The notes under the pieces are model-generated. The model saw only the letters and a program-made list of their open reading frames with translations. It did no database searches and was not told the origin of the DNA. A program made the translations under genes and the position numbers. This document shows, in pieces, positions 1,300 through 43,775 of a stretch of DNA of 64,000 nt; positions within the stretch are counted from its first letter, which is position 1; the number at the start of each line of letters is the position of its first letter. The DNA is from an uncultured Clostridia bacterium (GTDB taxonomy: Bacteria; Bacillota; Clostridia; TANB77; CAG-508), in contig CALXVB010000003.1 of NCBI GenBank assembly GCA_944391855.1, positions 1-64,000 of the forward strand. Reading direction: 5' to 3'.

Positions 1300-1458
1300 A
1301 ATTTACTCACTTTCCAGTATTTCTACTTAATTTTCTATTGTTAAAAATAAGGAAAAATGATATACTATTTATATAAAGATTGCGAATATCTTTATGTGGC
1401 ATTTGTGCAAAAGTCTGCTCTCCAAAGTGTACTTTTGTATAAATGCTTTTTAAATTTT

Positions 1459-1704: not shown

Positions 1705-1734
1705 AATTTTTGTCCTCCTTTGAAATCCTATAAA

Positions 1735-1957: not shown

Positions 1958-1995
1958 GATAAAATTTAAGCATAAATTGAGAAGGAGAAAATATT

Positions 1996-2745
1996 ATGAC
2001 AAATGGCGAAAGAATAAAGTATTTAAGAGAAAAAAATGGTTTTACTCAAAAAGATATTGCAACAAGATTAGGAGTAGAGCCTGCAGCAATATCAAAATAT
2101 GAATTAGATATGAGAGAACCAAATATAGAAGCAATAAAAAAGCTAGCCACAATTTTTAATGTTTCAATAGATTATTTACTTGGAAGAACACCAGATGTTT
2201 TTGTAGATGAAACAGATAGAGATACACTTGATATATCTGGTATTAAAGATAAATACAACTTTACAAAAAAGAGAATGGATAAAGTAAAAGAAATCTACAA
2301 AAATGATACTACACTAAGCACAGCCATAAACGAATTATGTTGTGGAGTAGGAAAAACTACTTTTGGAGAAACTATAACAAATACAAATATTTCAATGTTA
2401 GAAATAGAAAGCATATTTAATGATTTTATAAATAGCAAGGATCCTAAGCCACAAATTATGATGAAAGTTAAAGATTTAGAAAATAGTATTATAATTGTTG
2501 AAATTGATTCTTTTGACGATGAAGAAATGCCACTTGATGCAACTGATAGAATTGCTTTATATACTACAAAATTATCACAAAAATATAATGTGCTTGGTTT
2601 AGTAATGACAATTGATAAAGATGAAAATTGTAAAGTTATTGATGCTATATATCAAAAAAATAAAGATACTTATTATACTCAATTACATTTGCCTAGAACA
2701 GTATTAACTGCTGGAGAGTATATTGATATAATGAGTAGATTGTAA
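1996..2745 (+). CDS. XRE-family HTH transcriptional regulator; the C-terminal domain has unknown function
   Basis: N-terminus MTNGERIKYLREKNGFTQKDIATRLGVEPAAISKYELDMREPNIEAIKKLATIFNVSIDYLLGRT is an HTH_3/XRE domain. A ribosome-binding site GGAGAA precedes the ATG. Confidence 0.7.
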   Translation: MTNGERIKYLREKNGFTQKDIATRLGVEPAAISKYELDMREPNIEAIKKLATIFNVSIDYLLGRTPDVFVDETDRDTLDISGIKDKYNFTKKRMDKVKEIYKNDTTLSTAINELCCGVGKTTFGETITNTNISMLEIESIFNDFINSKDPKPQIMMKVKDLENSIIIVEIDSFDDEEMPLDATDRIALYTTKLSQKYNVLGLVMTIDKDENCKVIDAIYQKNKDTYYTQLHLPRTVLTAGEYIDIMSRL

Positions 2746-2807
2746 GAAAATTAATTTAATATGTATATTTTGTTATAAATCTAATAAAATAAGAAGGAGA
2801 AAATATA

Positions 2808-4260
2808 GTGAGAGACGAAAAATATTTAAAAGAATTAGTCGAATATTTAAGAAAATTCCCAAAAGAAACTGACTGGTTAGAATTTAAAACTAATTATTAT
2901 GAACCTCAAATTATAGGTGAATATATAAGTGCATTATCTAATGCAGCAGCATTGAATAATGTTCAATATGGTTATCTAATATTTGGTATAGATGATGATT
3001 CTCATGAAATAGTTGGCACGAATATAGTATTAAAAAACAAGAAAAAAGGAAATGAAGAATTAGAATCATGGATAACTAGATTACTTAATCCTAAAATTAA
3101 TTTTAATTTTTATGATATAGAAATTAATGGTAAGAAAGTAGCTATAATTGAAATTAAAAGAGCAGAATACACAATTACAAAGTTTGAAAGTACAGCTTAT
3201 ATGAGAATAGGAACAAATAAGAAACCACTAAGTGCTTTTGTTGGAAAAGAAAAAGAATTATGGAGGGTAATAAATTCTATGCCTTTTGAAATGTGTATTT
3301 CTATTGGAAATCTAACAAGTACAGAAGTACTACAAAAATTAGAGTATTCTTCATATTTTGAATTATTAGGTATTCCATTACCAGACAATGTTACACGGAA
3401 TATTAAATTATTTACAGGAAGAGGAATTTATAAAAAAGAATGAAAATGGAAAATGGGATATTACTAATTTAGGTGCGATTTTATTTGCAAAAAATCTGAA
3501 TGATTTTAAGAATATTAAAAGAAAAAGTATTAGAGTAATTCAATATGACGGAAAAAATAAATTAAAGACAATTAGAGAAGAAGTAGGAGATAAAGGGTAT
3601 GCAATTATATTTGAAGGAATTATAAAGTATATTAATACAATAATACCTAAAAATGAAATTATAGGAGAAGCATTAAGAAAAGAAGTATCTATGTATCCTG
3701 AATTAGCAATTAGGGAAGCTGTTGCCAATAGTTTAGTACACCAAGATTTTAATATATCAGGAACTGGACCTATGGTAGAAATTTATACAGATAGAATAGA
3801 AATAACAAACCCTGGGAAACCCTTAGTAAAAATTGATAGATTTATTGATAATCCTCCAAAATCAAGAAACGAACAATTAGCTTCTTTTTTAAGAAGAATA
3901 GGTGTATGTGAAGAACGTGGCAGTGGATTTGATAAAATAGTATATTCCACAGAAATATATCAATTACCTGCACCCAAAATTGAAGTTTATGATGAAGATA
4001 CTAAAATAACACTATATGCACATATGGCTTATGAGGATATGAGTAAAGAAGATAAAATAAGAGCTTGCTATATGCATGCATGTTTAAAATACGTTAGCAA
4101 TGAACATTTAACAAATGCATCTTTGAGGAAACGATTTGGAATAACACAAAATTCAGTTGTATCTAAAGTAATAAAAAAAGCATTAGATGATGGAAAAATA
4201 AAACCTTATGATAAAGATACAGCACCTAGATATATGGAATATATTCCTTATTGGGCTTAA
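2808..4260 (+). pseudogene. AlbA_2 (Schlafen-like) plus HATPase_c_4 putative DNA-binding ATPase/regulator, split by a frameshift near 3388-3443
   Basis: ORF 2808-3443 carries an AlbA_2-like N-domain (LEFKTNYYEP...YGYLIFGIDDDSHEIVGT). ORF 3388-4260 carries an HATPase_c_4-like C-domain (LAIREAVANSLVHQDFNISGTGPMVEIYTDRIEITNPG). The two are in different frames and overlap by 56 nt. Intact homologues are single proteins of about 480-500 aa. A one-base indel around 3395-3415 would fuse them. Confidence 0.5.
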
Positions 4261-10695: not shown

Positions 10696-12402
10696 TTATT
10701 TTGTCTTTTCAAGTTTTTTTAATTCTACAAATCTTTTTACCTTTTGTGTTGTAGTTTTTTCTAGTGGCTTATCTGTTAGAATAATTTCTTTTATATGTTT
10801 AAAAGTAGGTAATTCTTTATTTATATTTTTTATATCTTCCCATACTAATTTCTCATATTCTTTTTCTGTTTTTTCTCCAAAGTGATCCTTTATATTGTCC
10901 TTGTTATACACAATTTTTGCACAAAGTACAGTGTCTGTTTTACTCTTGTTACGTGCATATACCATGTTTTCTTCTACATATGGAAGTTTATTTATTAAAA
11001 ATTCTAATTCTTGTGGATAAATGTTTTTACCGTTTTTTAATACAATAATATCACTCTTTCTTCCAGTTATATATATAAATCCATCATTATCTATATATCC
11101 ATAGTCCCCTGTGTGAAGCCAGCCATTATCTAATGTTTTTTTAGTTGCCTCTTCATTCTCATAATATCCTAGCATTATGTTAGGGCCTTTTCCTAGTATT
11201 TCTCCTATTCCATTTTTATCTGGATTATCTATTTTTATTTCTACATTTTTAAGTGGTATTCCTATTGAGCCTGCTCTTTTCTTATCAGAAGATTCTGCTG
11301 TAAGTACAGGTGAACTTTCTGTTAAACCATATCCTTGAATTAGTTCTATTCCTAAATCGTTATACCATTCTATAGTTACTTTATCCATAGGCGCTGCACC
11401 ATAAAGTACAACTCTTAAATATTCATCAAATTGTTTTAATACAGGCTTAAATAATTTCTTTCTTACGTCTATTTTACACTTTAGAAGTCCGTGAGAAAGT
11501 TTAGTCATTTTATCTATTAAACCTTTTTTTCCGCTATCGCTAATTGCTTTTTGAATTTTTTTAGCCATTGTTTCAAGTACTAGTGGAACTGCAACAAATA
11601 CGGATACCTTAAATTCTTTTAAATTATCTGCTATATATCTTAATCCTTCACAAAACGCTATTGTTGCACCACAAAATGTACCATATAAAAATGTTATGCT
11701 ACACTCAAAAGTATGGTGTATTGGCAAGAAAGAAAGTAGTGTATCTGTTTCATATATCATAAAATTATATTGATAATTTGAAACATTTTTACAAATATTT
11801 TCTTGTGAAAGCATTACTGCTTTTGGTTCATTAGTTGTGCCTGAAGTAAATAGCATAATGTACATTTCATTTTCATTAAGTTTAATTTCGTCGTATTTTG
11901 CTTTACCTGCCTTTATTACGTCTTCTCCATCTTTTAGCATATTTTCAAATTTTAATACTCCGTCTTTTTCTATATTATCCATGCATATTTTGTATTTTAT
12001 GTTACAGCCTTGGCTAATGGCTTCATCTACTGCATTTTGATATTTTTCTTCATATACTATTGCGTCTACCCCGCTTCTTTTTAAAAGTTTTTCTATTTCT
12101 TTATCTGTTAATGCCTTATCTAATGGTACTATTATTCTTCCAGCTGTTGTTACTCCTAAATATGTTATACACCATTCATACCTATTATTTCCTATAACAG
12201 CTACTCTTTTGACATCTGAAGAAATTACTTTTTCCGCTACTTTTTTTATGTCTCCTACATATTTACTATATGTTACTTCTTCTACTTTTCCATTTCTTTT
12301 ATACTTAAAAGCAATGTTTTCTCCATAGCCTTCATATTTTTTTACTAATTCTCTGAAGTTCGATATCTCTTCATAATACTTGATTTTATCTTTTTTTCTC
12401 AC
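10696..12402 (-). CDS. Long-chain fatty acid--CoA ligase (AMP-binding), divergent from the NRPS gene
   Basis: 568 aa. LFTSGTTNEPKAV and GYGLTES AMP-binding motifs, eukaryote-like LACS/FadD type. Confidence 0.8.
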   Translation of the reverse strand: MRKKDKIKYYEEISNFRELVKKYEGYGENIAFKYKRNGKVEEVTYSKYVGDIKKVAEKVISSDVKRVAVIGNNRYEWCITYLGVTTAGRIIVPLDKALTDKEIEKLLKRSGVDAIVYEEKYQNAVDEAISQGCNIKYKICMDNIEKDGVLKFENMLKDGEDVIKAGKAKYDEIKLNENEMYIMLFTSGTTNEPKAVMLSQENICKNVSNYQYNFMIYETDTLLSFLPIHHTFECSITFLYGTFCGATIAFCEGLRYIADNLKEFKVSVFVAVPLVLETMAKKIQKAISDSGKKGLIDKMTKLSHGLLKCKIDVRKKLFKPVLKQFDEYLRVVLYGAAPMDKVTIEWYNDLGIELIQGYGLTESSPVLTAESSDKKRAGSIGIPLKNVEIKIDNPDKNGIGEILGKGPNIMLGYYENEEATKKTLDNGWLHTGDYGYIDNDGFIYITGRKSDIIVLKNGKNIYPQELEFLINKLPYVEENMVYARNKSKTDTVLCAKIVYNKDNIKDHFGEKTEKEYEKLVWEDIKNINKELPTFKHIKEIILTDKPLEKTTTQKVKRFVELKKLEKTK

Positions 12403-12548
12403 TAAATTTCCTCCTAATTATTGACTTATATTATATGTTAGATATTTTATAACAAATTCACAGTTTTTTCAATATAGCTGTCATTTTATATTGCTTTTTG
12501 TAATAAAAAATTATATAATATCTTCAAATTTATAAAATCAATATTAGG

Positions 12549-15500
12549 GTGAAAAATATGTTAGAAAAAAATGTTTACGGACTTACAGGTCCACAGAAAA
12601 ATATTTGGAATACAGAACTATTTTTTAATAATTCCAACGTTAATAATGTATGTGCTTCAGGTATTCTTCATGAAGCATTGGATTTTGATTTACTAAAGCA
12701 GGCTTTAAATATACTTGTTAAAGAAAACGATAGTTTTAGAGTTCGCATACAAGTAAAAGATAATGTTCCTGTTCAATATTTTAGTGATTTTGTTCCCTTT
12801 GATGTAGACATATTAAATGCAAATAACAAGAAAGACTTTGCAAAAATAGAGCAAGAAACAGTTTCTAAAAAATTTAATATTTTGGATTCTGATTTATTCT
12901 TATTTAAATTAGTCAGATTTCCTGATAGTACAGGTGGAATAATTTTAAATGTTCACCATATTATTTCTGACTCTTGGTCTTTAGGACTTGTTATACAAGA
13001 GATTATTAAAATTTACCATGCTTTAAAAGCAAATATTGATTATGTACCTGATACATTTTCATATATAGAATATATCAATTCTGAAGAGAAATATAAATCA
13101 AGTAAAAGATATCTATCTGACAAAGAATTTTGGTCAGACTATTTAAGTTCACTCCCTGAACCTGTTACAATTCCAGGTTTAGTTACTTCCACCTCTTCTT
13201 CTAGAGGAAATAGACTTTCATATACAATAGATAAAAAAACTTGTAATTTAATAAATGAATATTGTAGAAGTAATAATATTTCTAACTATGTTTTCTTTAT
13301 GTCTATTTTTGCTTTATATATTGCAAATATTTCCGACTCATTAGACTTTATAATAGGTACACCTATATTAAATAGAACTAATTTTAAAGAGAAAAATACC
13401 ATTGGTATGTTTGTAGAAACAGTACCTTTTAGATTTTCTTTAGACATTTCTTCTAGTTTCAAGGAACTTTCTTCTAAAACTAGTCTTAATTTAATGTCTT
13501 TATTAAGACATCAAAAATATTCATATACAGATATGTTAGAAGATTTGAGAAAACAAGATAATAATATTCCTAATTTATATAATATAGCCATTTCGTATCA
13601 AATTACTAAAGCTTTTTCTAGTGATATTGGAGATTATGAAACAAATTGGGCTTTTAATAACAACTCTTTAAATGATATGAATATACATATATATGATATT
13701 AACGATACTGGATCTTTACAAATCAATTATGATTATCTAATTGATAAATATGCAGAAAAAGATATTGAATTTTTACATTTAAGAATATTAAATATTATTA
13801 AACAAGTGCTAAATTCATCTAATAATTTAAAATTAAGCGATATTAAAGTTATTACTGATGAAGAATTTGGCCAATTAAGTAAATTTAACAACTACACATT
13901 GAACTATTCAACAGCTACTGTTAATGAATTAATTTCAGAAGCTGCTGATAAATACCCTAATAATATTGCAGTGGTAGATAATAATAGGAGAATAACATAT
14001 AGTCAACTCGAGAATTATTCTAATATTATTGCTAACATTTTAATAAAGAATAATATTAAAAGCAATGAAATAGTAGGTATATATATGCCTGAGAAAAATA
14101 TAGATTTAATTTGTTCTGCCTTAGGCATTTTAAAAACTGGTAGCGCTTTTTTAGGTATATATAATGAATATCCTTTAGATAGAATTATATATATGCTTAA
14201 GGATAGCAATTCAAAATGTCTTATTGTAGATGACCTAAATAATCCAAATGTTAAAGCTATAAAAACTGCTATTCCTAATATTTTATTGATTGAAACTAAT
14301 TCTTTAGATTTTTCTAAAAAGTTAGATTTTAAAATAAATACTAAAATAGATTTAGACTCAAATGCATATATAATATATACGTCAGGATCTACTGGTAAGC
14401 CTAAAGGAGTATCATTATCTCATAAGAACTTAATAAACTTTGTATATAGCTTTAGAGAGCATCTACAAGGTGTTGATATAACTGATAGATTTATTAGTGT
14501 TACTAATATTTGTTTTGATGTTAGTATGTCCGAAATATTTACACCTTTGTTTTTTGGTGCAAGTCTCTATTTGTATAAAGACTTAAATTATAGTACACCA
14601 AAAGAACTTGCTGAATATATTACAAAGAATGAGATTACATTTTCATATTTTCCACCTGCTCTACTCTCTCATGTATGTAATGAACTTAAAAAATTAGATG
14701 GTGTAAAATTGTGTAAAATGTTAGTCGGCGTTGAGCCAATTAAAGCCGCTACACTTTCTGAATTTTTGAAAATAAATCCTAATATGAGAATTGTAAATGG
14801 TTATGGTCCAACAGAGACAACTATATGCTGTACAATGTATGATTTTGGTAATACTCTTCCTGCTGATTCTATAGTACCTATAGGTATGCCATTGTATAAC
14901 AATCATCTTTATGTTTTTAATAAATTTATGAACTACTTGCCTATTAATTATCCTGGTATTTTGTGGGTAGCTGGTGATAACGTAGGAAATGGATATATAG
15001 GACAAGCAAAAAATACCACTGATACATATAAAGTATTTAATGGCACTAATTTCTATAATACTGGAGATTTAGTAAAATGGGATGAAAACGGTGTTTTACA
15101 TTTTATTGGTAGAAAAGATAACCAGATTAAATTTCATGGTTATAGAATCGATTTAGGTGAAATTGAAGCTGCAATAAAGAAATTTGAAAATGTAAGTAAT
15201 TGCTTTGTCTTGTCAAATAAAACAAATGAAGTGGATAGATTGGTAGCTTTTATAACTTCTCATTCTATAATAAATGAATTTGATATTAGAACATTTATAT
15301 CTAATATCTTGCCACATTATATGATTCCAAGCGAATTTATCTTTTTAGATACTTTCCCATTAACTCCTAATGGAAAGATAGATAAAAAAGCTTTATTAGA
15401 GCTTGCTAATGTTAAATTTAACAGTTCTAAAGATAATGTAAAACCTAGCTCTCCACTAGAAAATACTCTTGCTAATATATTTTCTAGCGTACTTGGTATA

Positions 15501-18500
15501 TCACAAATTAGTGTGAACGATAACTTTTTTGAACTTGGTGGTGATTCACTAAATGCAATTAAATTAATTGGTAAAATAGAAGAAGAATTACACATGAAAA
15601 TATTAATAAAAGATATTTTTAGCTTTCCTACAGTTGCATCAATGGCTAAATATATAGATCAATACTCTTCAAAAAGTGAAAAAAGAACTATTACGCCAAC
15701 TACTAAAGAAGAGTTTTACCCTCTAAGTTTTGCACAAAAAAGAATATATTATACAGTAAAATTAAATGAAAATTCTATTGTATATAACACACCATTTGGA
15801 ATTATCTTTGACAAAATGCCTGATACTTTAAAATTAGAGGCTTGCTTTAATACAATAATAGATACTAATCAAGCATTACGTACATACTTTGATATAGAGA
15901 ATGGAGAAGTTGTACAGAAAGTTAAGGATAAGATAGATTTTAAATTAGATGTTGTAGAAACAGAAAATAAGAGTATTAATGAAATTTTTGATGATTTCGT
16001 ACAACCTTTTGATTTAAATACAGCACCACTATTTAGAGCCAAATTTGTAAAATCAGGAAATATATATATTTTGCTTGTAGACATGCATCATATTATTTGT
16101 GATGGTCAATCAGCTAATATATTAGCAGATAAACTTTGTAAATTATATAATGATACTTCTATAGAAAAAAATGATATTGACTATATTGATTTTGTAGTTT
16201 GGGAAAGAAAAAACTCTCAAACAGAAGAGTTTGAAAAATCAAAAGAGTTTTGGGTAAATAATTTTAAAGGAGAATTACCTGTTTTAAATATGCCTTTACA
16301 AAAAACTAGACCTAAGGTTCAGTCTTTTAGAGGAAATAAAATATATGATAAAATAGAAGATACAGCTAAATTATATGAATTATGTAAGAACCTTAATGTT
16401 ACACCATATATGCTATTACTATCTTTATATTATGTATTATTATATAAATACACCGGTCAAGACGAATTTGTTGTAGGTTCTCCTATTACAGGTAGGGATA
16501 ATATTCAAACTTCTAATATTATTGGTATGTTTGTTAATACTTTACCTTTAAAGGCTACAGTTAATAAAAATACAAGTTTCCATAACTTGTTAAGCCAAGT
16601 AATGAATAATTGTATTAGAGCTTTTGAAAATCAGTTATATCCTTTTGATGAGCTTGTAAAAGAATTAGATATTCCAAGAGATTCTAGTACTACTCCTATA
16701 TTTAGCACAATGTTTACATTCCAAAATACAGGTGTTCCAAGTTTAGAATTAAATGGTTTGAATGTAAAATATTATATTCCTGATAATAAGACTGCTAAAT
16801 TTGATTTTTCGTTGGAGATATCTCCAATAGGTAATGATTTAGACTTAAATTTAGAATATTGTATTGATTTATTTGATAAGGAATTTATGCAAGATTTTCT
16901 AAAACATTATATTAATATTTATAACTATATATTAAATAATGATATGGAAGTTTTAATAAAAGATATACCTATATTATCTAAAGAAGAAGAAAATTCCTTG
17001 ATATATGAATATAATGATACATATATTGAATATCCTCGTGATAAAACAATAATACAGTTATTTGAAAAACAGGTAAAAGAAACTCCAAATAAAACTGCTA
17101 TTATATTTAATAATAAATCTATAACATATAAAGAATTAAATAAAAAAGCTAACCAAATTGCTTATTATTTAAGGGAAAATGGTATTAAACCTAATAATGT
17201 AGTTGGTATAATGGTAAATCGTTCTTTCGAATTAATTGCTTGCATGCTGGGAATTTTGAAGTCAGGCGCTGCATATTTGCCAATAGACCCAACATATCCA
17301 CAAGAAAGGATAAATTATATTATTAAAGATAGTAATGTTAATATATTACTTACATTAGATAACTTGATAAATAATATTAACATAGATTCTAATGCTAAAG
17401 TTTTACCTGTAAATTTTGATACTAGTGCAATCTACAATTTACCTGATGATAATTTAGATACTGTAAATAAACCAGAAGATTTAGCATATTTAATATATAC
17501 TTCTGGTTCTACTGGTAATCCAAAAGGAGTTATGCTTACACATAGAAATGTTAATAATTTTATAGAAGCAACCTGTAAAGAAATAGAATTTGAAAATATA
17601 ATAGTTTCTGTTACAACTTTCTGTTTTGATATATTTGTGTTAGAATCATTACTTCCTTTGCAAAAAGGATTAACAATAGTACTTGCAAATGAAGAAGAAC
17701 AAAACATACCTCAAAGACTAAATGAACTATGTAATGCCAATAACGTACAAATGTTACAGACAACTCCTGCTAGAATGTCTTTGCTCTTAAGTGATAAAGA
17801 TTCTTTAGAATATATCAAAAACTTAAAAGTAATAATGCTTGGAGGAGAACCATTCCCTCAAAAATTACTTGAAGAACTTAAAAGATTAACAGAGGCAAGA
17901 ATATATAATATGTATGGTCCAACAGAAACTACAGTATGGTCTTCTATAAAAGAACTTACAAATACCTCTGAAATAACTATAGGAAGGCCAATGGGTAATA
18001 CCCAATTCTATATTTTAGATAATGATAATAATCTCTTATCTGCCGGTATGGAAGGACATTTATTCATTGGTGGAGATGGTGTAGGTAACGGATATTTACA
18101 TAGAGTAGAATTAACTAAAGAAAAATTTATAAATAACCCATATAGAGAGAATGATATAATATATGATACAGGAGATATGGCAAAATGGAATAATGAAAAA
18201 GAAGCTATTTGTTTAGGAAGATCTGATTTCCAAGTAAAACTTCACGGTCTTAGAATTGAACTTTCTGAAATAGAAAATAGAATTGTACAATTTCCGAATA
18301 TATCCAAAGCAGTTGTTTGTGTAAAAAAGGATAATTTAGAAAGAGATTTCTTATGTGCTTATTTCGTATCTAAAAGTAGAATAAGTACACCTGCCTTGAA
18401 GGACTTTTTAAGTAAATTCTTACCTACTTACATGGTACCAAATAAATTTAAACAATTATCTGATTTCAAATACACACCTAACGGAAAGATAGATAAGAAA

Positions 18501-19994
18501 GCTTTGCCAGAAATTAGATTTCAAACAAAGAAAGATAACATAGAATTACCTAAAACAGCAACAGAAAAAAAATTGTCTAAAATATATGAAGAGCTTTTAA
18601 GTATTTCTCCAATAAGCATTAATGATAATTTCTTCGAAATTGGTGGAGATTCAATGCTTGCATTAAAGTTGCAAATTAAGTTATTAAATGATAATATATA
18701 TATCACCTATGCAGATATTTTTAAATATCCTACAATAAGACAATTAGCAAATAAGCTTGATACTAATATAGAAAATAATAGTATTTCTGTAGAAAATTAC
18801 GATTTTTCTAATATTCATTCACTTATAAAAGTTAATAGTATAGAAAATATCAAAAGTATATCAAAATTAGAAAAAAGAGAAACCGGAAATATTATTCTTA
18901 CTGGTGCTACTGGCTTTTTAGGTGCGCATATATTATCGCATATATTAGATAATACAAATCTAAAAGTTTATTGTTTATTACGACCTGATTTAAGTATAGA
19001 TATAAATACTAAATTATTAAAAAGATTACAATATTATTTTGGTAATAAATATGATAAATTAATGAATATAAGGATATTTGCAATATCTTCAGATATTACT
19101 AGTGAAGGACTTGGCTTAAACATTGATACACTTACCCTATTGAATAAAGAAGCTTCTTGTGTTATAAATAGTGCTGCTATTGTAAAACATTATGGAGATT
19201 ATTCAGATTTTGAAAAGATAAATGTAAATGGAGTAAAAAATTTAATAAATTTCTGTATTAATAATAATAAAGAATTAATACAAATTTCTACAACTAGTGT
19301 GTCTGGAAATACCTTGTTTGATTTAGCTATTGATAATAATAACTTTAAGGAAGATATTGAATTTAATGAAACTAATTTCTACATTGGACAATCTTTGGAA
19401 AATGTATATGTGCGTAGTAAGTTTGAAGCAGAAAAAATTATATTTGAAAATATGTTTCATAATAACCTAAGGGCATTAATATTAAGAATAGGAAATATAA
19501 CTAATAGAAGTACTGATGGTAAATTTCAGCCCAACGCTTCTGAAAATGCATTTTTAAATAGATTAAAAGCATTTTTAGAGTTAAAATGTGTTCCAAACTA
19601 TTTAAAAAACATATATATTGAATTTAGCCCAGTAGATAAAGTAGCAGAAGCTATATATAAAGCAATATGTTACTCAAATAAATTTAATGTTTTTCACATA
19701 TATAATCCAAACCATATATATATGGAAGATTTAGTTCAGTTATTACCTGAAAATAAATTGACTTTTGTAGAAGATGAAGTATTTGATAAGAAATTACATA
19801 ACTTTATGAAAAAGGTTAGCGATACTACTTCTGTTTCTTACTTAATAAATGATTTAAATAAAGACCAACATATAAATTATGATAATTATATAAAAATAAA
19901 AAATGACTTTACTACTTACTTTTTAAATAAATCTAACTTTAGATGGAATAAAATTGATAAAGATTATATTGAAAAACTATTAAAAAACTTTTAA
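12549..19994 (+). CDS. Two-module nonribosomal peptide synthetase, domain order C-A-T-C-A-T-R with a terminal thioester reductase
   Basis: 2481 aa. C1 has HHIISDSWS (nt ~12954). A1 has YTSGSTGKPKG (~14380) and PNGKIDKKAL (~15367). T1 has GGDSL (~15538). C2 has HHIICDGQS (~16085). A2 has YTSGSTGNPKG (~17497) and PNGKIDKKAL (~18478). T2 has GGDSM (~18640). R has GATGFLGAHIL (~18904) and YVRSK (~19405). Confidence 0.9.
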   Translation: MKNMLEKNVYGLTGPQKNIWNTELFFNNSNVNNVCASGILHEALDFDLLKQALNILVKENDSFRVRIQVKDNVPVQYFSDFVPFDVDILNANNKKDFAKIEQETVSKKFNILDSDLFLFKLVRFPDSTGGIILNVHHIISDSWSLGLVIQEIIKIYHALKANIDYVPDTFSYIEYINSEEKYKSSKRYLSDKEFWSDYLSSLPEPVTIPGLVTSTSSSRGNRLSYTIDKKTCNLINEYCRSNNISNYVFFMSIFALYIANISDSLDFIIGTPILNRTNFKEKNTIGMFVETVPFRFSLDISSSFKELSSKTSLNLMSLLRHQKYSYTDMLEDLRKQDNNIPNLYNIAISYQITKAFSSDIGDYETNWAFNNNSLNDMNIHIYDINDTGSLQINYDYLIDKYAEKDIEFLHLRILNIIKQVLNSSNNLKLSDIKVITDEEFGQLSKFNNYTLNYSTATVNELISEAADKYPNNIAVVDNNRRITYSQLENYSNIIANILIKNNIKSNEIVGIYMPEKNIDLICSALGILKTGSAFLGIYNEYPLDRIIYMLKDSNSKCLIVDDLNNPNVKAIKTAIPNILLIETNSLDFSKKLDFKINTKIDLDSNAYIIYTSGSTGKPKGVSLSHKNLINFVYSFREHLQGVDITDRFISVTNICFDVSMSEIFTPLFFGASLYLYKDLNYSTPKELAEYITKNEITFSYFPPALLSHVCNELKKLDGVKLCKMLVGVEPIKAATLSEFLKINPNMRIVNGYGPTETTICCTMYDFGNTLPADSIVPIGMPLYNNHLYVFNKFMNYLPINYPGILWVAGDNVGNGYIGQAKNTTDTYKVFNGTNFYNTGDLVKWDENGVLHFIGRKDNQIKFHGYRIDLGEIEAAIKKFENVSNCFVLSNKTNEVDRLVAFITSHSIINEFDIRTFISNILPHYMIPSEFIFLDTFPLTPNGKIDKKALLELANVKFNSSKDNVKPSSPLENTLANIFSSVLGISQISVNDNFFELGGDSLNAIKLIGKIEEELHMKILIKDIFSFPTVASMAKYIDQYSSKSEKRTITPTTKEEFYPLSFAQKRIYYTVKLNENSIVYNTPFGIIFDKMPDTLKLEACFNTIIDTNQALRTYFDIENGEVVQKVKDKIDFKLDVVETENKSINEIFDDFVQPFDLNTAPLFRAKFVKSGNIYILLVDMHHIICDGQSANILADKLCKLYNDTSIEKNDIDYIDFVVWERKNSQTEEFEKSKEFWVNNFKGELPVLNMPLQKTRPKVQSFRGNKIYDKIEDTAKLYELCKNLNVTPYMLLLSLYYVLLYKYTGQDEFVVGSPITGRDNIQTSNIIGMFVNTLPLKATVNKNTSFHNLLSQVMNNCIRAFENQLYPFDELVKELDIPRDSSTTPIFSTMFTFQNTGVPSLELNGLNVKYYIPDNKTAKFDFSLEISPIGNDLDLNLEYCIDLFDKEFMQDFLKHYINIYNYILNNDMEVLIKDIPILSKEEENSLIYEYNDTYIEYPRDKTIIQLFEKQVKETPNKTAIIFNNKSITYKELNKKANQIAYYLRENGIKPNNVVGIMVNRSFELIACMLGILKSGAAYLPIDPTYPQERINYIIKDSNVNILLTLDNLINNINIDSNAKVLPVNFDTSAIYNLPDDNLDTVNKPEDLAYLIYTSGSTGNPKGVMLTHRNVNNFIEATCKEIEFENIIVSVTTFCFDIFVLESLLPLQKGLTIVLANEEEQNIPQRLNELCNANNVQMLQTTPARMSLLLSDKDSLEYIKNLKVIMLGGEPFPQKLLEELKRLTEARIYNMYGPTETTVWSSIKELTNTSEITIGRPMGNTQFYILDNDNNLLSAGMEGHLFIGGDGVGNGYLHRVELTKEKFINNPYRENDIIYDTGDMAKWNNEKEAICLGRSDFQVKLHGLRIELSEIENRIVQFPNISKAVVCVKKDNLERDFLCAYFVSKSRISTPALKDFLSKFLPTYMVPNKFKQLSDFKYTPNGKIDKKALPEIRFQTKKDNIELPKTATEKKLSKIYEELLSISPISINDNFFEIGGDSMLALKLQIKLLNDNIYITYADIFKYPTIRQLANKLDTNIENNSISVENYDFSNIHSLIKVNSIENIKSISKLEKRETGNIILTGATGFLGAHILSHILDNTNLKVYCLLRPDLSIDINTKLLKRLQYYFGNKYDKLMNIRIFAISSDITSEGLGLNIDTLTLLNKEASCVINSAAIVKHYGDYSDFEKINVNGVKNLINFCINNNKELIQISTTSVSGNTLFDLAIDNNNFKEDIEFNETNFYIGQSLENVYVRSKFEAEKIIFENMFHNNLRALILRIGNITNRSTDGKFQPNASENAFLNRLKAFLELKCVPNYLKNIYIEFSPVDKVAEAIYKAICYSNKFNVFHIYNPNHIYMEDLVQLLPENKLTFVEDEVFDKKLHNFMKKVSDTTSVSYLINDLNKDQHINYDNYIKIKNDFTTYFLNKSNFRWNKIDKDYIEKLLKNF

Positions 19995-20019
19995 TTATAT
20001 TATAGGAGGAAAACATAGG

Positions 20020-21822
20020 ATGACCACTTTTTTACTATTATATTTTTCGGTAATAATTATTCTTGTAATAATACTTTTAATCAACAGAACCAAAAATAAC
20101 AATCAGCTAGCAAAAATATATACATGTAGCTTAGTTTGTATATTAATATGGGTTACGGCATTACTGTGTCAAATGACTTTTGCTGAAAGGTATAACATTC
20201 CTCCTATATATTTTGATTATGTAGCATATATAGGTATATGTTTTCTGCCTATTAGTGTACTCTTTACTGGTATATGCTTTTCAAAAACGCATGTTACTTT
20301 TAAGAAAAAGCATCTATTGCTATTTATTGTACCAATCATAACTTTGCTATTACTTTGGACAAATGACTACCATCATTTATTATATGAGCACTATTCTATA
20401 TACTTAAACGACTGCGTTTCCGGTCCATATATGATAATGCATAATATATATTCATACGGTTTGCTCTTGATTGGTGTAATGTATTTATTAATATTTTCTT
20501 TTAGGAACTCAGGATTTTTCTCAAAACAATCAGTACTGATTTTTATTGGAATGCTTATTCCTTTAGTAGTTAATGTTTTGGGAACATTCAAAATTCTACC
20601 TATGACAATATATATAACACCTATGACATTTACTCTAACAATGATATTTACTGCACTTGCAATTTTTAAATTTAACTTTTTGTCCGCAACGCCTATTGCA
20701 CTTCAGCGTATTGTCGACACTATGTCTGATGGATATATAGTTCTAAATACTTATAATGTTGTAGTAGATTTTAACTTATCTTTGTTAAAAATGTTAAACA
20801 CAACTGAAGAGAAAGTTAGAAACAAGGATTTTATAGAGCTTCTTAATTTCACTGAATTTACTAAATCTGAAATTAAGAAAGTGGCTCACTATATAGCCTT
20901 ATCAAAAAGCAATAATAAAACTTATACTATGGATAAAGAAAGCAAAGTAACAGAAAAGTATTTTCATATAGAAATAAGTGGATTAATGTCTGAAAATACT
21001 AATATAGGAACTTTAATACTCCTTAAAGATACGACTCAGCACATGATAGATTTACATACCATACAAAATAGTCAAAATTTACTTATGGAAAGAGAGCGTT
21101 TAGCATCACTTGGACAATTAATCGGTGGTATTGCACATAACTTAAAAACACCTATAATGTCAATTTCAGGTGCAGCTGAAGGTTTAACAGATTTAATTCA
21201 TGAATATGATACTTCTATAGGTGACCCGGAAGTTACAAATGATGATCATCATGCCATTGCAAAAGATATGTCAGAATGGGTTAGTAAAATTAAATCATAT
21301 ACAGAATACATGTCAGACGTAATTACAGCTGTTAAAGGGCAGGCAGTTACTCTTTCTGAAAATGATTCTACTTCTTTTGATATTGACGAATTAGTTAAAA
21401 GAGTAAATATATTGATGAGGCATGAATTAAAAAATGCTTTAGTAACATTAAATACAGAGATGAATATAGACAAAAGTACAACTTTGCATGGTGATATAAC
21501 TAGTCTAGTTCAAGTTATTAACAATATGATTTCTAATAGTATTCAAGCATATAATGGAGAGCCTAATAAAGTAATTGATTTAATAATAAAAAAACATGCT
21601 TCAAATGTAGTTATTTCAGTAAGAGATTATGGAAATGGTCTTCCAGAAGAAGTAAAAGAAAAATTATTTAAAGAAATGATAACAACAAAAGGGAAAAATG
21701 GTACTGGTCTTGGATTATTTATGTCTTACTCTACAATAAGAGCACATTTTAATGGAGATATAACATTTGAAACTAAACAAGGTAAAGGTTCTACATTTAA
21801 TATAGTTATACCTATTAAATAA
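20020..21822 (+). CDS. Sensor histidine kinase with N-terminal 7TM domain
   Basis: 600 aa. Seven hydrophobic helices in the first ~220 aa. H-box LGQLIGGIAHNLKTP. HATPase G-box GTGLGLF. Starts 25 nt after the NRPS stop, with a ribosome-binding site GGAGGA. Confidence 0.8.
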   Translation: MTTFLLLYFSVIIILVIILLINRTKNNNQLAKIYTCSLVCILIWVTALLCQMTFAERYNIPPIYFDYVAYIGICFLPISVLFTGICFSKTHVTFKKKHLLLFIVPIITLLLLWTNDYHHLLYEHYSIYLNDCVSGPYMIMHNIYSYGLLLIGVMYLLIFSFRNSGFFSKQSVLIFIGMLIPLVVNVLGTFKILPMTIYITPMTFTLTMIFTALAIFKFNFLSATPIALQRIVDTMSDGYIVLNTYNVVVDFNLSLLKMLNTTEEKVRNKDFIELLNFTEFTKSEIKKVAHYIALSKSNNKTYTMDKESKVTEKYFHIEISGLMSENTNIGTLILLKDTTQHMIDLHTIQNSQNLLMERERLASLGQLIGGIAHNLKTPIMSISGAAEGLTDLIHEYDTSIGDPEVTNDDHHAIAKDMSEWVSKIKSYTEYMSDVITAVKGQAVTLSENDSTSFDIDELVKRVNILMRHELKNALVTLNTEMNIDKSTTLHGDITSLVQVINNMISNSIQAYNGEPNKVIDLIIKKHASNVVISVRDYGNGLPEEVKEKLFKEMITTKGKNGTGLGLFMSYSTIRAHFNGDITFETKQGKGSTFNIVIPIK

Positions 21823-21991
21823 TATAATTTATATAAAAGAGGTTAGAAAATATAGTAAAAATATATGCTATATTTTCTTTTTTAATTTTATAGTAAAGTT
21901 TAATCTCTTTTAATTTTTTTATAAAAAGTATCTTGATTTTTTGTCAAACTACTAATATAATTAGTTATATTCTGAATAAGAAGGTGATATT

Positions 21992-23047
21992 ATGAGAAAA
22001 AATGAGAATATTGCAAAATCTAATGGATATAAGATTATAGCAGTTGATGATGAAGAAGGAATAGTAGATTCACTTTCTATATTCCTAAAAAGGTCAGGTT
22101 ATCAGTTTACAGGAGTTACCGATCCACTAGAGGCAATAGAAAAAGTAAAAAATGAACACTTTGATTTAATGATTTTGGACTTTATAATGGAACCTATACA
22201 TGGTGATAAGGTTGTAGAAGAAATTCGTAAATTTAATAAAGAATTATACATTTTATTACTTACTGGTCATAAAGATTTAGCCCCACCGCTTGAGACTATT
22301 AGAGAATTAGACATTCAAGGATATTGCGAAAAAAGTGATAAATTTGACCAACTTTTATTACTTATAGAGTCAGGAATTAAATCTATTGAACAAATGAATG
22401 AAATTAAGAGAATAAATGAAGAGCTTTCCGAAACTTATGAAAGATTGGAAAAGGCTTACTTAGATAGTATACAAACACTAAGGTATACAGTTGAAGCAAA
22501 GGATCCATATACAAGAGGTCATTCTGATAGAGTATCTGAGTATTCTGTTTTAATAGGCAAGAAGTTAGGTTTATCAGATGATGATTTAAAAACCTTACGT
22601 GTTGGCGGGTTATTCCATGATATTGGTAAGATTGGAATACCAGACAGTATACTTTTAAAAGAATCAAAATTAACAGATGATGAATATTCAGAAATAAAAA
22701 GTCATCCATCTATTGGTGCACATATTCTTTGTAATGCAGAAGTATTTAAAGATATCATACCAATAGTAAAGCATCACCACGAAAGATATGATGGAAGAGG
22801 ATATCCAGGGCAATTAAAAGGAGAAGATATTCCATATTTTGCAAGAATTGCTGCTGTGGCTGATAGCTTTGATGCGATGACCTCAAAAAGGACTTATAGA
22901 AATTCATTAGATATTTCTATAGTACGTTCTGAAATAGAAAAGAATCTAGGAACTCAATTTGACCCTAAATTAGGCAAAATTTTCATAGATATAATTGATA
23001 ATGAATATGATAAAATAAAGGAAATACAGGAAAAATATCCTTCATAA
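21992..23047 (+). CDS. Response regulator with REC plus HD-GYP domain (c-di-GMP phosphodiesterase type)
   Basis: 351 aa. REC domain (IIAVDDEEG...DLMILD). HD-GYP core HSDRV...GLFHDIGKIGIP...HHERYDGRGYPG. A hairpin-U7 terminator lies at 23053-23078. Confidence 0.85.
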   Translation: MRKNENIAKSNGYKIIAVDDEEGIVDSLSIFLKRSGYQFTGVTDPLEAIEKVKNEHFDLMILDFIMEPIHGDKVVEEIRKFNKELYILLLTGHKDLAPPLETIRELDIQGYCEKSDKFDQLLLLIESGIKSIEQMNEIKRINEELSETYERLEKAYLDSIQTLRYTVEAKDPYTRGHSDRVSEYSVLIGKKLGLSDDDLKTLRVGGLFHDIGKIGIPDSILLKESKLTDDEYSEIKSHPSIGAHILCNAEVFKDIIPIVKHHHERYDGRGYPGQLKGEDIPYFARIAAVADSFDAMTSKRTYRNSLDISIVRSEIEKNLGTQFDPKLGKIFIDIIDNEYDKIKEIQEKYPS

Positions 23048-23052
23048 TAATT

Positions 23053-23078
23053 TCCCCGGTTAGCCCGGGGATTTTTTT
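23053..23078 (+). terminator. Rho-independent terminator: CCCCGG-ttagc-CCGGGG followed by T8
   Basis: Stem 23054-23059/23065-23070, followed by ATTTTTTT. Confidence 0.7.
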
Positions 23079-23131: not shown

Positions 23132-25312
23132 TTAAATTTTCATACTTAATTTTACTTTTTGTCTTTCACTATCTATTCCTATAACTTTGACTTTTACTAC
23201 GTCTCCAACTGAAACTATATCTGATGGATTTTTTACAAAACTATTGCTCAATTCTGATATATGTACTAATCCATCATGCTTTACTCCTACATCTACAAAT
23301 GCACCAAAATCTGTTACATTTCTTACTGTTCCTGTTAATATTTGCCCTTCTCTTAAATCTTCGAACTTAAGTACATCTGCTCTTAATATTGGTTTTGGCA
23401 TTTCTTCTCTTGGGTCTCTTCCTGGTTTAGATAATTCTTCTATTATATCTTTTAAGGTTATCTCTCCTACATTTAACTCTTTTGCTGTGGTCTCTATTTT
23501 TATATTTGCTAATTTTTCTTTTATTTCTTTTAATTTGTTCTTATCTGTTAAATCTTCCTTTTTATATCCAACTTTATTTAATAAATTTTCTGCTACTTCA
23601 TAGCTTTCCGGATGCACGGCTGTTATCTCTAATGGATTTTTACCGTCTGGTATTCTAATAAACCCTGCGCATTGTTCAAATGCTGCTTTTCCGAGTTTTG
23701 GTACTTTTAATAGTTCTTTTCTTTCTTTTATTTTTCCATTTGCGTCTCTATATTTTACAATATTATTTGCTATTGTTTTATTTATTCCTGCAATATATTG
23801 TAATAATGATGGTGTAGCTGTATTTATATCTACTCCTACTTTGTTTACTGCATCTTCCACAACACCGGTTAAACTTTCTGATAGCTTCTTTTGATCAACA
23901 TCATGTTGGTATTGTCCTACTCCTATTGCTTTTGGATCTATTTTTACAAGTTCTGCTAATGGATCTTGTAATCTTCTTGCTATTGATATTGCACCTCTTA
24001 AAGAAACATTTATATCTGGATATTCTTCAGTTGCAAGTTTCGAAGCAGAATATACTGATGCACCAGCTTCTGATACTATGGTATAGTAAACATCTTTATT
24101 TAATTCTTCTTTTGCCTTTTTTATTACACCTGAAACAAATGCTTCTGATTCTCTTGATGCAGTTCCATTTCCTATGGCAAACATATTAGCATCATATTTT
24201 TTGATTAAATCTAACAATACTTTTGTCGCACCTTCTTCGTCGTTTTGTGGCTCTGTTGGATAGATTGTAGTTGTATCTAATACTTTACCTGTTTCGTCTA
24301 TTACAGCAATTTTACAACCTGTTCTATATGCTGGGTCAAAACCTATTACAGTTAAATTTTTTATTGGTGCACCTAGAAGTAGCTGTTTTGCATTACTTCC
24401 AAATACTTTTATTGCCTTTTCCTCTGCTTTTTCTGTTAAATCAGAACGTATCTCTCTATCTATTGATGGTTCTATTAATCTTTTCCAACTATCTAAAATA
24501 GTAGCTTTTAAATATTCTTCAAACTGGGTATGTCCTTTTAGTATATCTCTTTCCATAAAATATATTATTTTATCTTCTGGCTTATCTATTTTTACCTTTA
24601 AAAATTCTTCCTTTTCTCCCCTATTTATAGCTAAAATCCTGTGGCTTGGTAATCTATTTATTTTTTCGTTAAAATCATAATACATATTATAGCTAGAATT
24701 TTCTTCTGGTTTTGTACCTTTTACATTCATTATTCCTTCTCTATAGCAAATACCTTTTATCTTCTTTCTATATCTAGCATTATCAGATATATTTTCTGCA
24801 ATTATATCTAACGCACCAGAAATTGCTTCATTCACATTTGCAACTATTTTTTCTTTTGGAGTGTCTTTTTCCACATTTACAAAATCTTTTGCTATTTCTT
24901 TTATTGGTCTACTTTCAGCTTGTTCATATATTATATCAGCCAAGGGCTCTAGTCCCTTAGCTTTTGCTATGGTTGCTCTAGTTTTCTTTTTAGGTTTATA
25001 TGGTCTATATATATCTTCTACATCTGCTAAAGTTACAGCATCTGCTATTGACTTTGAAATCTCTTCTGTAAGTTTTCCTTGTTCTTCAATAGATTTTAAT
25101 ACTTCTTCTTTTCTTTTTTCTAGATTTCTTAAATATGTAAGTCTATCTCCTAAATCTCTTAATATTTCATCAGATAGGCCTCCAGTTACTTCTTTTCTGT
25201 AACGAGCAATAAATGGAATAGTATTTCCTTCATCTATTAAATTTACAGTTGCCTCTACCTGTTTTTCTTTAATATTTAACTCTTCTGCAATAATTTTTAT
25301 AATCTTATCCAT
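23132..25312 (-). CDS. tex: Transcription accessory protein Tex (YqgF plus S1 domains)
   Basis: 726 aa. N-terminus MDKIIKIIAEELNIKEKQVEATVNLIDEGNTIPFIARYRKE is canonical for Tex. Confidence 0.9.
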   Translation of the reverse strand: MDKIIKIIAEELNIKEKQVEATVNLIDEGNTIPFIARYRKEVTGGLSDEILRDLGDRLTYLRNLEKRKEEVLKSIEEQGKLTEEISKSIADAVTLADVEDIYRPYKPKKKTRATIAKAKGLEPLADIIYEQAESRPIKEIAKDFVNVEKDTPKEKIVANVNEAISGALDIIAENISDNARYRKKIKGICYREGIMNVKGTKPEENSSYNMYYDFNEKINRLPSHRILAINRGEKEEFLKVKIDKPEDKIIYFMERDILKGHTQFEEYLKATILDSWKRLIEPSIDREIRSDLTEKAEEKAIKVFGSNAKQLLLGAPIKNLTVIGFDPAYRTGCKIAVIDETGKVLDTTTIYPTEPQNDEEGATKVLLDLIKKYDANMFAIGNGTASRESEAFVSGVIKKAKEELNKDVYYTIVSEAGASVYSASKLATEEYPDINVSLRGAISIARRLQDPLAELVKIDPKAIGVGQYQHDVDQKKLSESLTGVVEDAVNKVGVDINTATPSLLQYIAGINKTIANNIVKYRDANGKIKERKELLKVPKLGKAAFEQCAGFIRIPDGKNPLEITAVHPESYEVAENLLNKVGYKKEDLTDKNKLKEIKEKLANIKIETTAKELNVGEITLKDIIEELSKPGRDPREEMPKPILRADVLKFEDLREGQILTGTVRNVTDFGAFVDVGVKHDGLVHISELSNSFVKNPSDIVSVGDVVKVKVIGIDSERQKVKLSMKI

Positions 25313-39504: not shown

Positions 39505-41085
<1,581 letters not shown>

Positions 41086-41102
41086 TTACAAGGAGGTTTT
41101 CT

Positions 41103-41450: not shown

Positions 41451-41465
41451 TTATGGAGGTGTACT

Positions 41466-42362: not shown

Positions 42363-42364
42363 TT

Positions 42365-43755: not shown

Positions 43756-43775
43756 CTTAATTTGGAGGTGCATTA

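Follow-up and report, generated by a model that had tools for sequence, protein, structure and literature searches.

An NRPS gene co-inherited with the sensor half of a 7TM histidine kinase points to a candidate signalling module with an HD-GYP output in gut Clostridia

We analysed a stretch of 64,000 nucleotides (the window) from an uncultured Clostridia bacterium of the TANB77/CAG-508 lineage (contig CALXVB010000003.1), in which the gene for a nonribosomal peptide synthetase (NRPS) is followed by genes for a seven-transmembrane (7TM) sensor histidine kinase and for a response regulator that joins a receiver (REC) domain to an HD-GYP domain. The three open reading frames (ORFs) all lie on the plus strand, at 12549/12558–19994, 20020–21822 and 21992–23047, in DNA of about 26% G+C. 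An earlier note had reported this order, with the kinase 25 nt behind the NRPS, and had proposed a circuit leading from a metabolite to cyclic di-GMP (c-di-GMP). ORF calling and Pfam assignments find all three genes where it had placed them. No protein of the locus reaches an NCBIfam cutoff.

The NRPS (2478 aa, 12558–19994), the proposed signal synthase, contains two modules in the order C-A-T-C-A-T-R (C, condensation; A, adenylation; T, thiolation; R, reductase), seen in Pfam as two Condensation, two AMP-binding and two PP-binding matches and one NAD_binding_4 match. Translation most likely starts at the ATG at 12558, behind an AGGGTG site, rather than at the GTG at 12549. The catalytic motifs are intact: HHIISDS (residue 133) and HHIICDG (1177) in the condensation domains, GGDSL (994) and GGDSM (2029) in the carrier domains, and the Rossmann motif GATGFLG in the reductase. 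The nearest NCBIfam model is AusA, which matches residues 720–2473 with 1518.8 bits, below its cutoff of 2500. From the domain order, the product is predicted to be an N-acyl dipeptide aldehyde or alcohol. The enzyme opens with a C domain, so that this product probably carries an N-acyl group and is no free-amine precursor of a pyrazinone; the starter C domain (HHIISDS) and the fatty-acyl-AMP ligase (FAAL) and acyl carrier protein (ACP) genes of related operons both predict N-acylation. The term "pyrazinone-class" in the earlier note is therefore imprecise, although the AusA-like pair of modules and the terminal reductase are present. Several metagenome-assembled genomes (MAGs) have the NRPS divided over two or three ORFs (L011, L012, L039, L041, L042, L063, L065, L086, L090 and L093), which could be due to pseudogenisation or to a frameshift introduced in sequencing or assembly.

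A gene resembling fatty-acyl-AMP/CoA ligases (AMP-binding and AMP-binding_C_3 in Pfam) is divergent from the NRPS on the minus strand, at 10696–12402. Its best NCBIfam match is a long-chain-fatty-acid--CoA ligase model, below the cutoff, and it is 28% identical to the FAAL-like gene within the outgroup operons. It probably supplies the acyl starter for the NRPS and is an accessory part, found in only a subset of related loci. The intergenic region at 12403–12557 presumably carries the promoter or promoters for the NRPS–kinase transcript and for the ligase gene; a promoter-like TTGACT-16-TATTTT at 12421–12448 is a consensus match only.

The spacer between NRPS and kinase (19995–20019, plus strand) is of the operon type. 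The NRPS stop codon, TAA, occupies 19992–19994, an AGGAGG ribosome-binding site lies at 20004–20009 and the kinase begins with the ATG at 20020. No hairpin or terminator was found in these 25 nt, which agrees with the earlier description of a kinase gene that has its own ribosome-binding site and no terminator before it. The kinase (600 aa) has the Pfam content HisKA_7TM, PAS, HisKA and HATPase_c. Residues 1–225 (20020–20694) form the seven-helix HisKA_7TM sensor, the proposed ligand-binding module and part of the hypervariable cassette described below. Residues 226–350 (20695–21069) contain the PAS domain, and the identity profile places the end of the cassette at about residue 350. Residues 351–600 (21070–21822) make up the conserved transmitter, with the dimerisation and histidine phosphotransfer (DHp) domain (H-box HNLKTP, His373) and the catalytic ATPase (CA) domain.

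The HisKA_7TM match (PF16927) scores 132.3 bits against a cutoff of 28.6, and seven helices are seen in the structure model. The sensor models as a bundle like that of G-protein-coupled receptors (GPCRs), which would fit a small hydrophobic ligand; the literature we found mentioning the HisKA_7TM domain reports no ligand for it. Cys74 in the third transmembrane helix (20239–20241) is invariant across the kinases of the window's branch. The longest outer loop carries the motif W113-T-N-D-Y-H-H119 (20356–20376), which is largely kept in a 30%-identical branch, where T114, N115 and one His are invariant. Speculatively, Cys74 and residues 113–119 are candidate contacts for a constant part of the ligand.

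The response regulator (351 aa, 21992–23047, plus strand), the proposed output, consists of a REC domain (residues 1–135) and an HD-GYP domain (150–351), matching Response_reg and HD_5/HD in Pfam. Its motifs are intact, with HD at residue 209 and HHHERYDGRGYP at residue 261, that is, the HHE..DG.GYP pattern. Pfam places no DNA-binding domain in the protein. In NCBIfam the protein comes nearest to a family of c-di-GMP phosphodiesterase response regulators, scoring 208 bits where the cutoff is 400. Among structures in the PDB, the relatives that align over the whole HD-GYP domain are V-cGAP3 (5z7c, 1.7e-45), a phosphodiesterase of 3'3'-cyclic GMP-AMP (3'3'-cGAMP), and PmGH (4mcw, 4.5e-40), a c-di-GMP phosphodiesterase.

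The gap of 169 nt between kinase and regulator, given earlier as 170 nt, is not empty. Directly after the kinase gene, RNA folding finds an AT-rich 13-bp hairpin with a U-run on the plus strand (21845–21887; dG −16.3 kcal/mol, z −3.6) that resembles a terminator or attenuator, and a similar hairpin with a T-run lies 3' of the kinase stop codon in 31 of 54 related spacers, counted without a shuffle control. Further downstream, a consensus scan finds a promoter-like TTGATT-17-TATAAT (21933–21961, plus strand, 10/12 matches), weak as an indication, since DNA as AT-rich as this is expected to give such matches by chance. From the hairpin, here and in the relatives, it is likely that in this clade the NRPS and kinase form one transcription unit and the regulator is transcribed separately. 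The two-strand scan confirms a strong GC-rich terminator at 23053–23078 (7-bp stem, six GC pairs, T-run), as the earlier note had stated, but this probably closes the second of two units and not a single one. The terminator is bidirectional, with a stem from 23053–23071 on, and is common to the convergent tex gene (23132–25312, minus strand).

When each species was represented by a single genome, a scan detected relatives of the kinase in at least 567 genomes, of which the best 80 were analysed. All are uncultured gut Clostridia MAGs, from human, rabbit, mouse and goat hosts, and one of them, Clostridium sp. CAG:273, is placed in TANB77/CAG-508 by GTDB (PMC13508870). By ORF calling and blastp, an NRPS of 2,400–2,550 aa lies directly before the kinase in every one of these loci that has upstream sequence. 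Kinase orthologues at 80, 74, 65, 63 and 60% identity have the NRPS directly upstream even with other flanking genes. The idea that the kinase is a core gene of the clade beside which an NRPS was inserted was rejected because the orthologues keep the NRPS upstream. The gap between NRPS and kinase has a median of 12 nt (range −14 to 244) and is at most 40 nt in 56 of 66 loci; for the gap between kinase and regulator the median is 177 nt, and 18 of 57 loci have more than 300 nt. The kinase–regulator linkage is looser than the NRPS–kinase linkage. The block HtrA-NRPS-kinase-regulator-Tex-ABC-F-CorA is largely syntenic across the window's clade, and although its flanks vary through insertions, inversions and loss of the ligase gene, the NRPS–kinase junction is never broken.

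Loose kinase–regulator loci include L074, L084, L086, the group L014/L015/L019, and L043, L057, L061, L066, L069 and L082. The regulator is inverted in three genomes, and elsewhere a transposase or 1–8 kb of inserted DNA parts it from the kinase. A set of TrwB-like, DnaB_2 and IstB/DnaA-like genes, which in the window lies upstream of gyrA (39505–44771), directly follows the kinase in L008/L026, where the stretch from regulator to CorA is missing (L008/L009/L026, 12449–17878). This implies that a deletion or rearrangement took the regulator out of the neighbourhood in L008/L026.

Within the clade, the synthase and the sensor are far more variable than their surroundings. As pairwise means over 46 species-level loci, the identities are 0.42 for the NRPS, 0.48 for the 7TM domain and 0.46 for the PAS domain, compared with 0.71 for the kinase core (DHp-CA), 0.82 for REC, 0.75 for HD-GYP, 0.79 for Tex and 0.87 for ABC-F. 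In simulations of unlinked domains along the housekeeping tree, fast-evolving ones are expected to track the backbone at r 0.85–0.95; here, the NRPS does so at 0.46 and 7TM at 0.30. Co-variation with REC is found for the kinase core (Mantel r 0.75; partial r, controlling for Tex, 0.72), in support of a cognate two-component pair, and not for 7TM (r 0.08).

The two halves of the kinase follow different histories. In 1,091 triplets of loci in which the NRPS topology contradicts that of Tex, the 7TM domain follows the NRPS in 671 and Tex in 91, and PAS does so in 361 and 216, respectively. The kinase core follows the NRPS in only 57 triplets and Tex in 739; the corresponding counts are 235 and 533 for REC and 133 and 506 for HD-GYP. 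Individual pairs illustrate the same split. L051 and L052, with Tex at 74% identity, share 94% in the NRPS and 88% in 7TM, but only 56% in PAS and 64% in the kinase core, and at the nucleotide level their shared block (87–100%) stops about 600 nt into the kinase gene. Conversely, L088 and L094 share 96% in Tex and 91% in the kinase core, but 66% in the NRPS and 46% in 7TM, a pattern also found for L031/L032 and L013/L014.

The boundary was located by comparing close pairs (Tex ≥86%) in which the NRPS is switched (68 pairs) with pairs carrying the same cassette (16 pairs). The ratio of switched to same-cassette identity is 0.34–0.85 over kinase residues 1–350, rises to 0.93 at residue 351 and is 0.77–0.96 from there on; it is 0.82–0.99 in the regulator and 0.95–1.00 in Tex. 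This profile sets the end of the cassette at the junction of PAS and DHp, that is, of sensor and transmitter, at residue 350. The NRPS and the sensor half of the kinase thus form a cassette that is swapped between species, and the kinase core, the regulator and the neighbouring genes follow the species tree.

The association also holds in 17 independent sister pairs, with a partial Spearman coefficient given Tex of 0.75 for NRPS and 7TM (p 5e-4) and of 0.88 for NRPS and PAS (p 4e-6); the value for NRPS and REC, 0.33, is not significant. Pairs with a similar R domain never have a dissimilar 7TM domain (0/12), and the reverse combination is equally missing (0/16). PAS tracks NRPS module 1 (rho 0.94 with C1 and 0.81 with A1), although it is physically farther from the NRPS than 7TM is. 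The 7TM domain tracks module 2 and the reductase, and the distance along the DNA does not explain this split. PAS and 7TM may read different parts of the product, or the difference may be small-sample noise.

A-domain pockets, with positions anchored on the FDxS, GGE and NxYGPTE motifs, were used to follow changes in predicted specificity. The window has DVSYLGGIC in A1 and DILQMGMVW in A2, the latter presumably glycine-like. About nine pocket types occur, most of them at either position, in 46 distinct combinations among 62 loci; several resemble Stachelhaus codes that we take to be those for Gly (DILQLGLIW), Val (DAFWLGGTF), Pro (DVQFIAHVA) and Thr (DFWNIGMVH). Among pairs with Tex ≥0.84, those in which both pocket types match have a 7TM identity of 0.81 and a kinase-core identity of 0.86, and those in which neither matches have 0.48 and 0.79. 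The recurrence of pocket types (the A domains of the window lie at about 14500–14830 and 17400–17950) points to shuffling of modules or A domains in this NRPS family. Often, replacement affects the NRPS except for its C1 domain, which keeps to the species background.

Two pairs in which only A1 is swapped are informative with respect to the sensor. In L013/L019 the nonsynonymous divergence (dN) is 0.18 in 7TM, compared with 0.019 in the R domain and 0.020 in the kinase core, and the synonymous divergence (dS) of 7TM, 0.95, is not raised above that of the neighbouring kinase segments (0.96–1.12). In L014/L031 the dN values are 0.25, 0.081 and 0.059, respectively, and the dS of 7TM is 1.36 against 0.86–0.97 in the neighbouring segments. 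The flanking R domain and kinase core are kept at 85–96% in these pairs. A diverged 7TM domain between conserved flanks, with A1 swapped upstream, is not something that one recombination tract could produce. In unswapped pairs the dN of 7TM is only 0.6–2.7 times that of the kinase core. In these two cases, it looks as if the sensor protein evolves faster after a change of product.

The arrangement extends well beyond the window's clade. The sensor half (residues 1–350) was searched against 1.84 billion representative proteins, which gave 134 clusters at a threshold of E ≤1e-30 and 4,521 when it was relaxed to E ≤1e-10; even the best match was only 47% identical. In some distant relatives (P0247, P0205, P0195) the 7TM-PAS unit is fused to a GGDEF diguanylate cyclase or belongs to GAF/hemerythrin hybrid kinases, which suggests that this type of sensor is recurrently linked with c-di-GMP signalling. 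A distant branch was seeded by P0170, which has the same architecture and a sensor with 30% identity; contigs of its relatives were inspected, and a metagenome scan and an ORF census were made. On a 936-kb contig (L096), a C-A-T-C-A-T-R NRPS is followed after 5 nt by the kinase and after a further 18 nt by a REC-DUF3369-HD-GYP regulator. Two loci from a hydrocarbon metagenome (L097/L098) have a phosphopantetheinyl transferase (PPTase), NRPS, kinase, regulator, FAAL-like protein and ACP. On a 914-kb contig (L099), a single-module NRPS ending in a thioesterase (C-A-T-TE) overlaps the kinase, which in turn overlaps the regulator. Two Peptococcaceae MAGs (L100/L101) encode NRPS, kinase, regulator, FAAL-like protein, ACP and PPTase with 4-nt overlaps. 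None of these loci has a flanking gene in common with the window. A second REC-HD-GYP regulator and a hybrid kinase with a histidine phosphotransfer (HPt) domain adjoin the operon in L099 (15647–19200), and a REC-HD-GYP-GGDEF protein does so in L100/L101 (16210–18240).

The order NRPS-kinase-regulator-FAAL-ACP-PPTase, with overlapping genes, is seen in L100/L101, L107, L109, L113, L115, L119, L120 and L131, and FAAL-like, ACP and PPTase genes are frequently found 3' of the regulator in the branch outside the window's. In that branch the NRPS is directly upstream in 37 of 38 loci, and the regulator lies within 300 nt downstream in 39 of 40. Among window-type loci of the metagenome census, the NRPS is directly upstream in 34 of 36 and the regulator is in the flank in all 35. 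The partner NRPS is C-A-T-C-A-T-R, C-A-T-TE or C-A-T-R, always with a C domain first. The trio thus occurs with unrelated flanks in distant Bacillota from gut, fermentation and hydrocarbon metagenomes, and this census excludes conserved synteny within one clade as the explanation. The co-occurrence across homologous clusters that had been suggested as a check was strongly borne out, in the clade and in the distant branch.

On the strength of this comparative genomics, we think it probable that an N-acyl dipeptide aldehyde or alcohol made by the NRPS is sensed by the 7TM-PAS kinase, which would control the HD-GYP regulator and thereby cyclic-dinucleotide levels. The fatty-acyl ligase and the N-terminal condensation domain would load the acyl group, the two modules would add two amino acids, and the terminal reductase would free the N-acyl dipeptide as aldehyde or alcohol, as the domain order suggests. 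The lipophilic product could then bind to the 7TM bundle, the PAS domain or both, in a kinase that is predicted to be co-transcribed with its NRPS; the co-variation of sensor and synthase points to such binding. Binding would alter autophosphorylation of His373 and phosphotransfer to REC, in a pairing supported by the co-variation of kinase core and REC. Phosphotransfer would in turn switch the HD-GYP phosphodiesterase, whose motifs are intact and whose activity is predicted, and so shift the level of c-di-GMP or a related cyclic dinucleotide. With synthase and sensor half exchanged together, many "dialects" could be played on one transmitter and regulator, as in agr and com pherotypes. We infer the structure of the product, its role as ligand, the sign of the regulation, the nucleotide substrate and the downstream phenotype. 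The circuit from metabolite through membrane sensor to HD-GYP protein, with the logic of RpfC/RpfG, which had been proposed earlier, is in this way supported. Of the two alternatives offered with it, sensing of the product is favoured, since it is the sensor half that switches with the NRPS, not the kinase core or the regulator. Control of NRPS expression by the two-component system finds no support, the regulator having no DNA-binding domain and the window no c-di-GMP riboswitch. Output through c-di-GMP in particular is to be taken with reserve, since the best solved relative of the HD-GYP domain is a 3'3'-cGAMP phosphodiesterase.

Several observations weigh against this product-sensing reading. 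Judged by sequence, the substrate of the HD-GYP domain is ambiguous between c-di-GMP and 3'3'-cGAMP. Within the window, no riboswitch for c-di-GMP or other Rfam element was found, including upstream of the NRPS, and Pfam finds no GGDEF (diguanylate cyclase), EAL or PilZ domain or effector in its ORFs of at least 150 aa. Some genomes have a regulator that is displaced by insertions, inverted or not in the flank, and the NRPS is missing in 3 of 74 testable metagenome and outgroup loci (L130, L146 and L158). The dN/dS of the sensor never exceeds 1, so there is no signal of positive selection. Co-inheritance can be produced by linkage alone, which leads to a different account of the same data: the module is functional, but the kinase senses another membrane or environmental cue, the NRPS being merely co-expressed or the 7TM domain serving to dock or export the product, and the co-variation reflects hitchhiking with crossovers in the DHp-coding DNA. 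Going downstream from the NRPS, DNA that is well conserved is first reached in the DHp region, where homologous crossovers would tend to fall even if matching were not selected for. The strongest co-variation is between adjacent segments, A2/R and 7TM, and the sensor domains of kinases generally evolve faster than transmitters. Moreover, the Mantel correlation of 7TM with the NRPS (r 0.68, partial 0.64) is to be read against a simulated shared-tree null with a partial r of 0.43 ± 0.10, about two standard deviations below the observed value; with the null already at 0.43, we did not rely on the partial Mantel test and used triplets, sister pairs and nucleotide and residue profiles instead. At larger distances, pocket-matched sensors are barely more similar than others (0.53 vs 0.46), and identical pocket types show no clear convergence signal there. 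Since the effect shrinks with distance, the association is mainly identity by descent of whole cassettes, and the evidence for convergence is weak. Hitchhiking would, however, leave unexplained why the triad is kept over distant lineages with different flanks and NRPS architectures, and the kinase and regulator lie inside a biosynthetic operon in many loci. It does not predict that PAS should track the more distant module 1, that A1-only swaps should raise the dN of 7TM between conserved flanks (in L013/L019 with dS not raised), or that R domain and 7TM should never be mismatched. We therefore regard it as rather unlikely.

Another account, which we consider improbable, reverses the direction of control: the two-component system would regulate the NRPS from an external cue by way of cyclic dinucleotides, and the metabolite would act outward, for instance as a protease inhibitor directed at the host or at competitors. 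Biosynthetic clusters commonly hold pathway-specific regulators, and the response regulator has near relatives among c-di-GMP phosphodiesterase families. Peptide aldehydes that inhibit host cathepsins have been reported as products of related gut NRPSs (summarised in PMC12282076). Such regulation is difficult to reconcile with a response regulator that has no DNA-binding domain and with a window in which Rfam detects no c-di-GMP riboswitch or other element, upstream of the NRPS or elsewhere. An external cue would not demand a new sensor at each change of NRPS specificity, and the kinase, being downstream in the NRPS transcript, is made with the NRPS and not ahead of it. Finally, the adjacency might have no functional meaning and be a gene order handed down in a clade whose genomes are small and little rearranged, as the largely syntenic HtrA-to-CorA block of the window's clade might suggest. 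The occurrence of the trio with unrelated flanks in distant Bacillota (37/38 and 39/40), together with clade flanks that change while the NRPS–kinase junction stays unbroken, effectively refutes this possibility, to which we give almost no weight.

Elsewhere in the window, the region 45086–63692 adjoins the chromosomal origin. Its minus strand encodes dnaA (58243–59583), dnaN, recF, gyrB and gyrA, its plus strand yidC and mnmE, and the GC skew changes sign at about 59–60 kb; the NRPS–kinase locus is about 35–45 kb from oriC. An insertion between gyrB and gyrA (47716–51654) encodes a TraG-like P-loop protein, a ParA/CbiA-like protein and two ORFs without a Pfam match, with a G+C content of 15–20% that is unusually low even here. 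A phage- or defence-like group at 496–4260 comprises a Phage_rep_org_N protein, an HTH_3 protein and a Schlafen AlbA_2 protein followed by a HATPase_c_4 protein.

The logic of the locus resembles the Rpf system for diffusible signal factor (DSF) of Xanthomonas (RpfB-RpfF-RpfC-RpfG), and its population structure resembles that of agr and com. As in Rpf/DSF, the gene for the synthase of a lipid-like signal adjoins a polytopic membrane sensor kinase, the cognate regulator is of the REC-HD-GYP (RpfG) type, so that a signal would lead to cyclic-dinucleotide hydrolysis, and a gene of the acyl-CoA-ligase type is a neighbour (RpfB there, the FAAL-like gene here). The synthase, however, is a two-module NRPS, whereas RpfF belongs to the crotonase/enoyl-CoA hydratase family; no crotonase domain was found by Pfam in the 41 window ORFs of at least 150 aa. 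The kinase consists of HisKA_7TM-PAS-HisKA-HATPase_c only, whereas RpfC is a hybrid with REC and HPt domains, and the host belongs to the Bacillota (Clostridia) and not to the Proteobacteria. Synthase and sensor are hypervariable here, which to our knowledge has not been described for Rpf.

With agr (AgrB-AgrD-AgrC-AgrA) and com (ComC-ComD-ComE), the locus shares a hypervariable cassette of signal-making genes and the sensor half of the kinase, a conserved kinase core and regulator (seen here in triplets, profiles and sister pairs), and exchange of the cassette among close relatives that gives rise to specificity groups. It differs from them in that the signal would be non-ribosomal, whereas they use a precursor peptide made by the ribosome and a protein dedicated to its processing. 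The kinase has a canonical HisKA H-box (HNLKTP) and is not of the HPK10 class, the regulator is an HD-GYP enzyme and not a LytTR transcription factor, and the variation is between species-level genomes. In the synthase, kinase class and regulator class by which the Rpf and agr/com families are defined, the locus differs from them, and so it belongs to neither.

The synthase itself is closest to the AusA and gut dipeptide-aldehyde family (A-T-C-A-T-R; aureusimines, pyrazinones and cathepsin-inhibiting aldehydes), with which it shares two modules, a terminal thioester reductase and, for the gut members, an origin in Clostridia. It differs in its extra N-terminal C domain (with FAAL and ACP genes in relatives), whose predicted N-acylation would block pyrazinone formation, and in a score below the AusA equivalog cutoff (1518.8 vs 2500 bits). 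No sensor or receptor for this family was found in the searchable literature. In Vibrio (CqsA/CqsS) and Legionella (LqsA/LqsS), an autoinducer synthase is encoded beside a multi-pass kinase that senses the hydrophobic product in the membrane, an arrangement like the one described here. Those synthases, in contrast, are acyl-CoA transferases dependent on pyridoxal phosphate, and their output is a phosphorelay to LuxO or LqsR; we know of no cassette hypervariability in either system.

An autoinducer synthase encoded with its sensor kinase is therefore a known principle, and our comparison suggests that the NRPS version is previously undescribed. In the literature searched, no description was found of an NRPS that has a 7TM kinase and an HD-GYP regulator as partners, although coverage of subscription journals was incomplete and a prior mention is possible; nor was a paper found there that treats TANB77 together with nonribosomal synthesis. 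A broader proposal, which we hold more tentatively than the reading of the locus itself but regard as a real possibility, is that these loci represent an unrecognised and widespread class of Gram-positive signalling. N-acyl amino-acid or dipeptide aldehydes (or alcohols or acids) made by NRPSs would be autoinducers, read by 7TM-PAS kinases and turned into cyclic-dinucleotide turnover, and A-domain shuffling with sensor replacement would have generated dozens to hundreds of private dialects in TANB77/CAG-508 and other Bacillota.

The peptide aldehydes of gut Clostridia are known mainly as host-protease inhibitors after heterologous expression. The present loci offer a candidate native role for such NRPS products, each NRPS having its own predicted receptor. 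If this is true, non-ribosomal lipopeptide signals read by a GPCR-like bacterial kinase would join the known means of cell–cell communication and would be linked to cyclic-dinucleotide signalling in Gram-positive anaerobes. The many synthase and sensor pairs on one transmitter would suit the deorphanising of ligands, studies of how receptor specificity evolves and the construction of orthogonal sensors. Among the carriers is TANB77/CAG-508, a gut order that is prevalent and uncultured and for which an association with the response to cancer immunotherapy has been described (PMC11680825); a handle on its physiology or on signals for its cultivation would be valuable.

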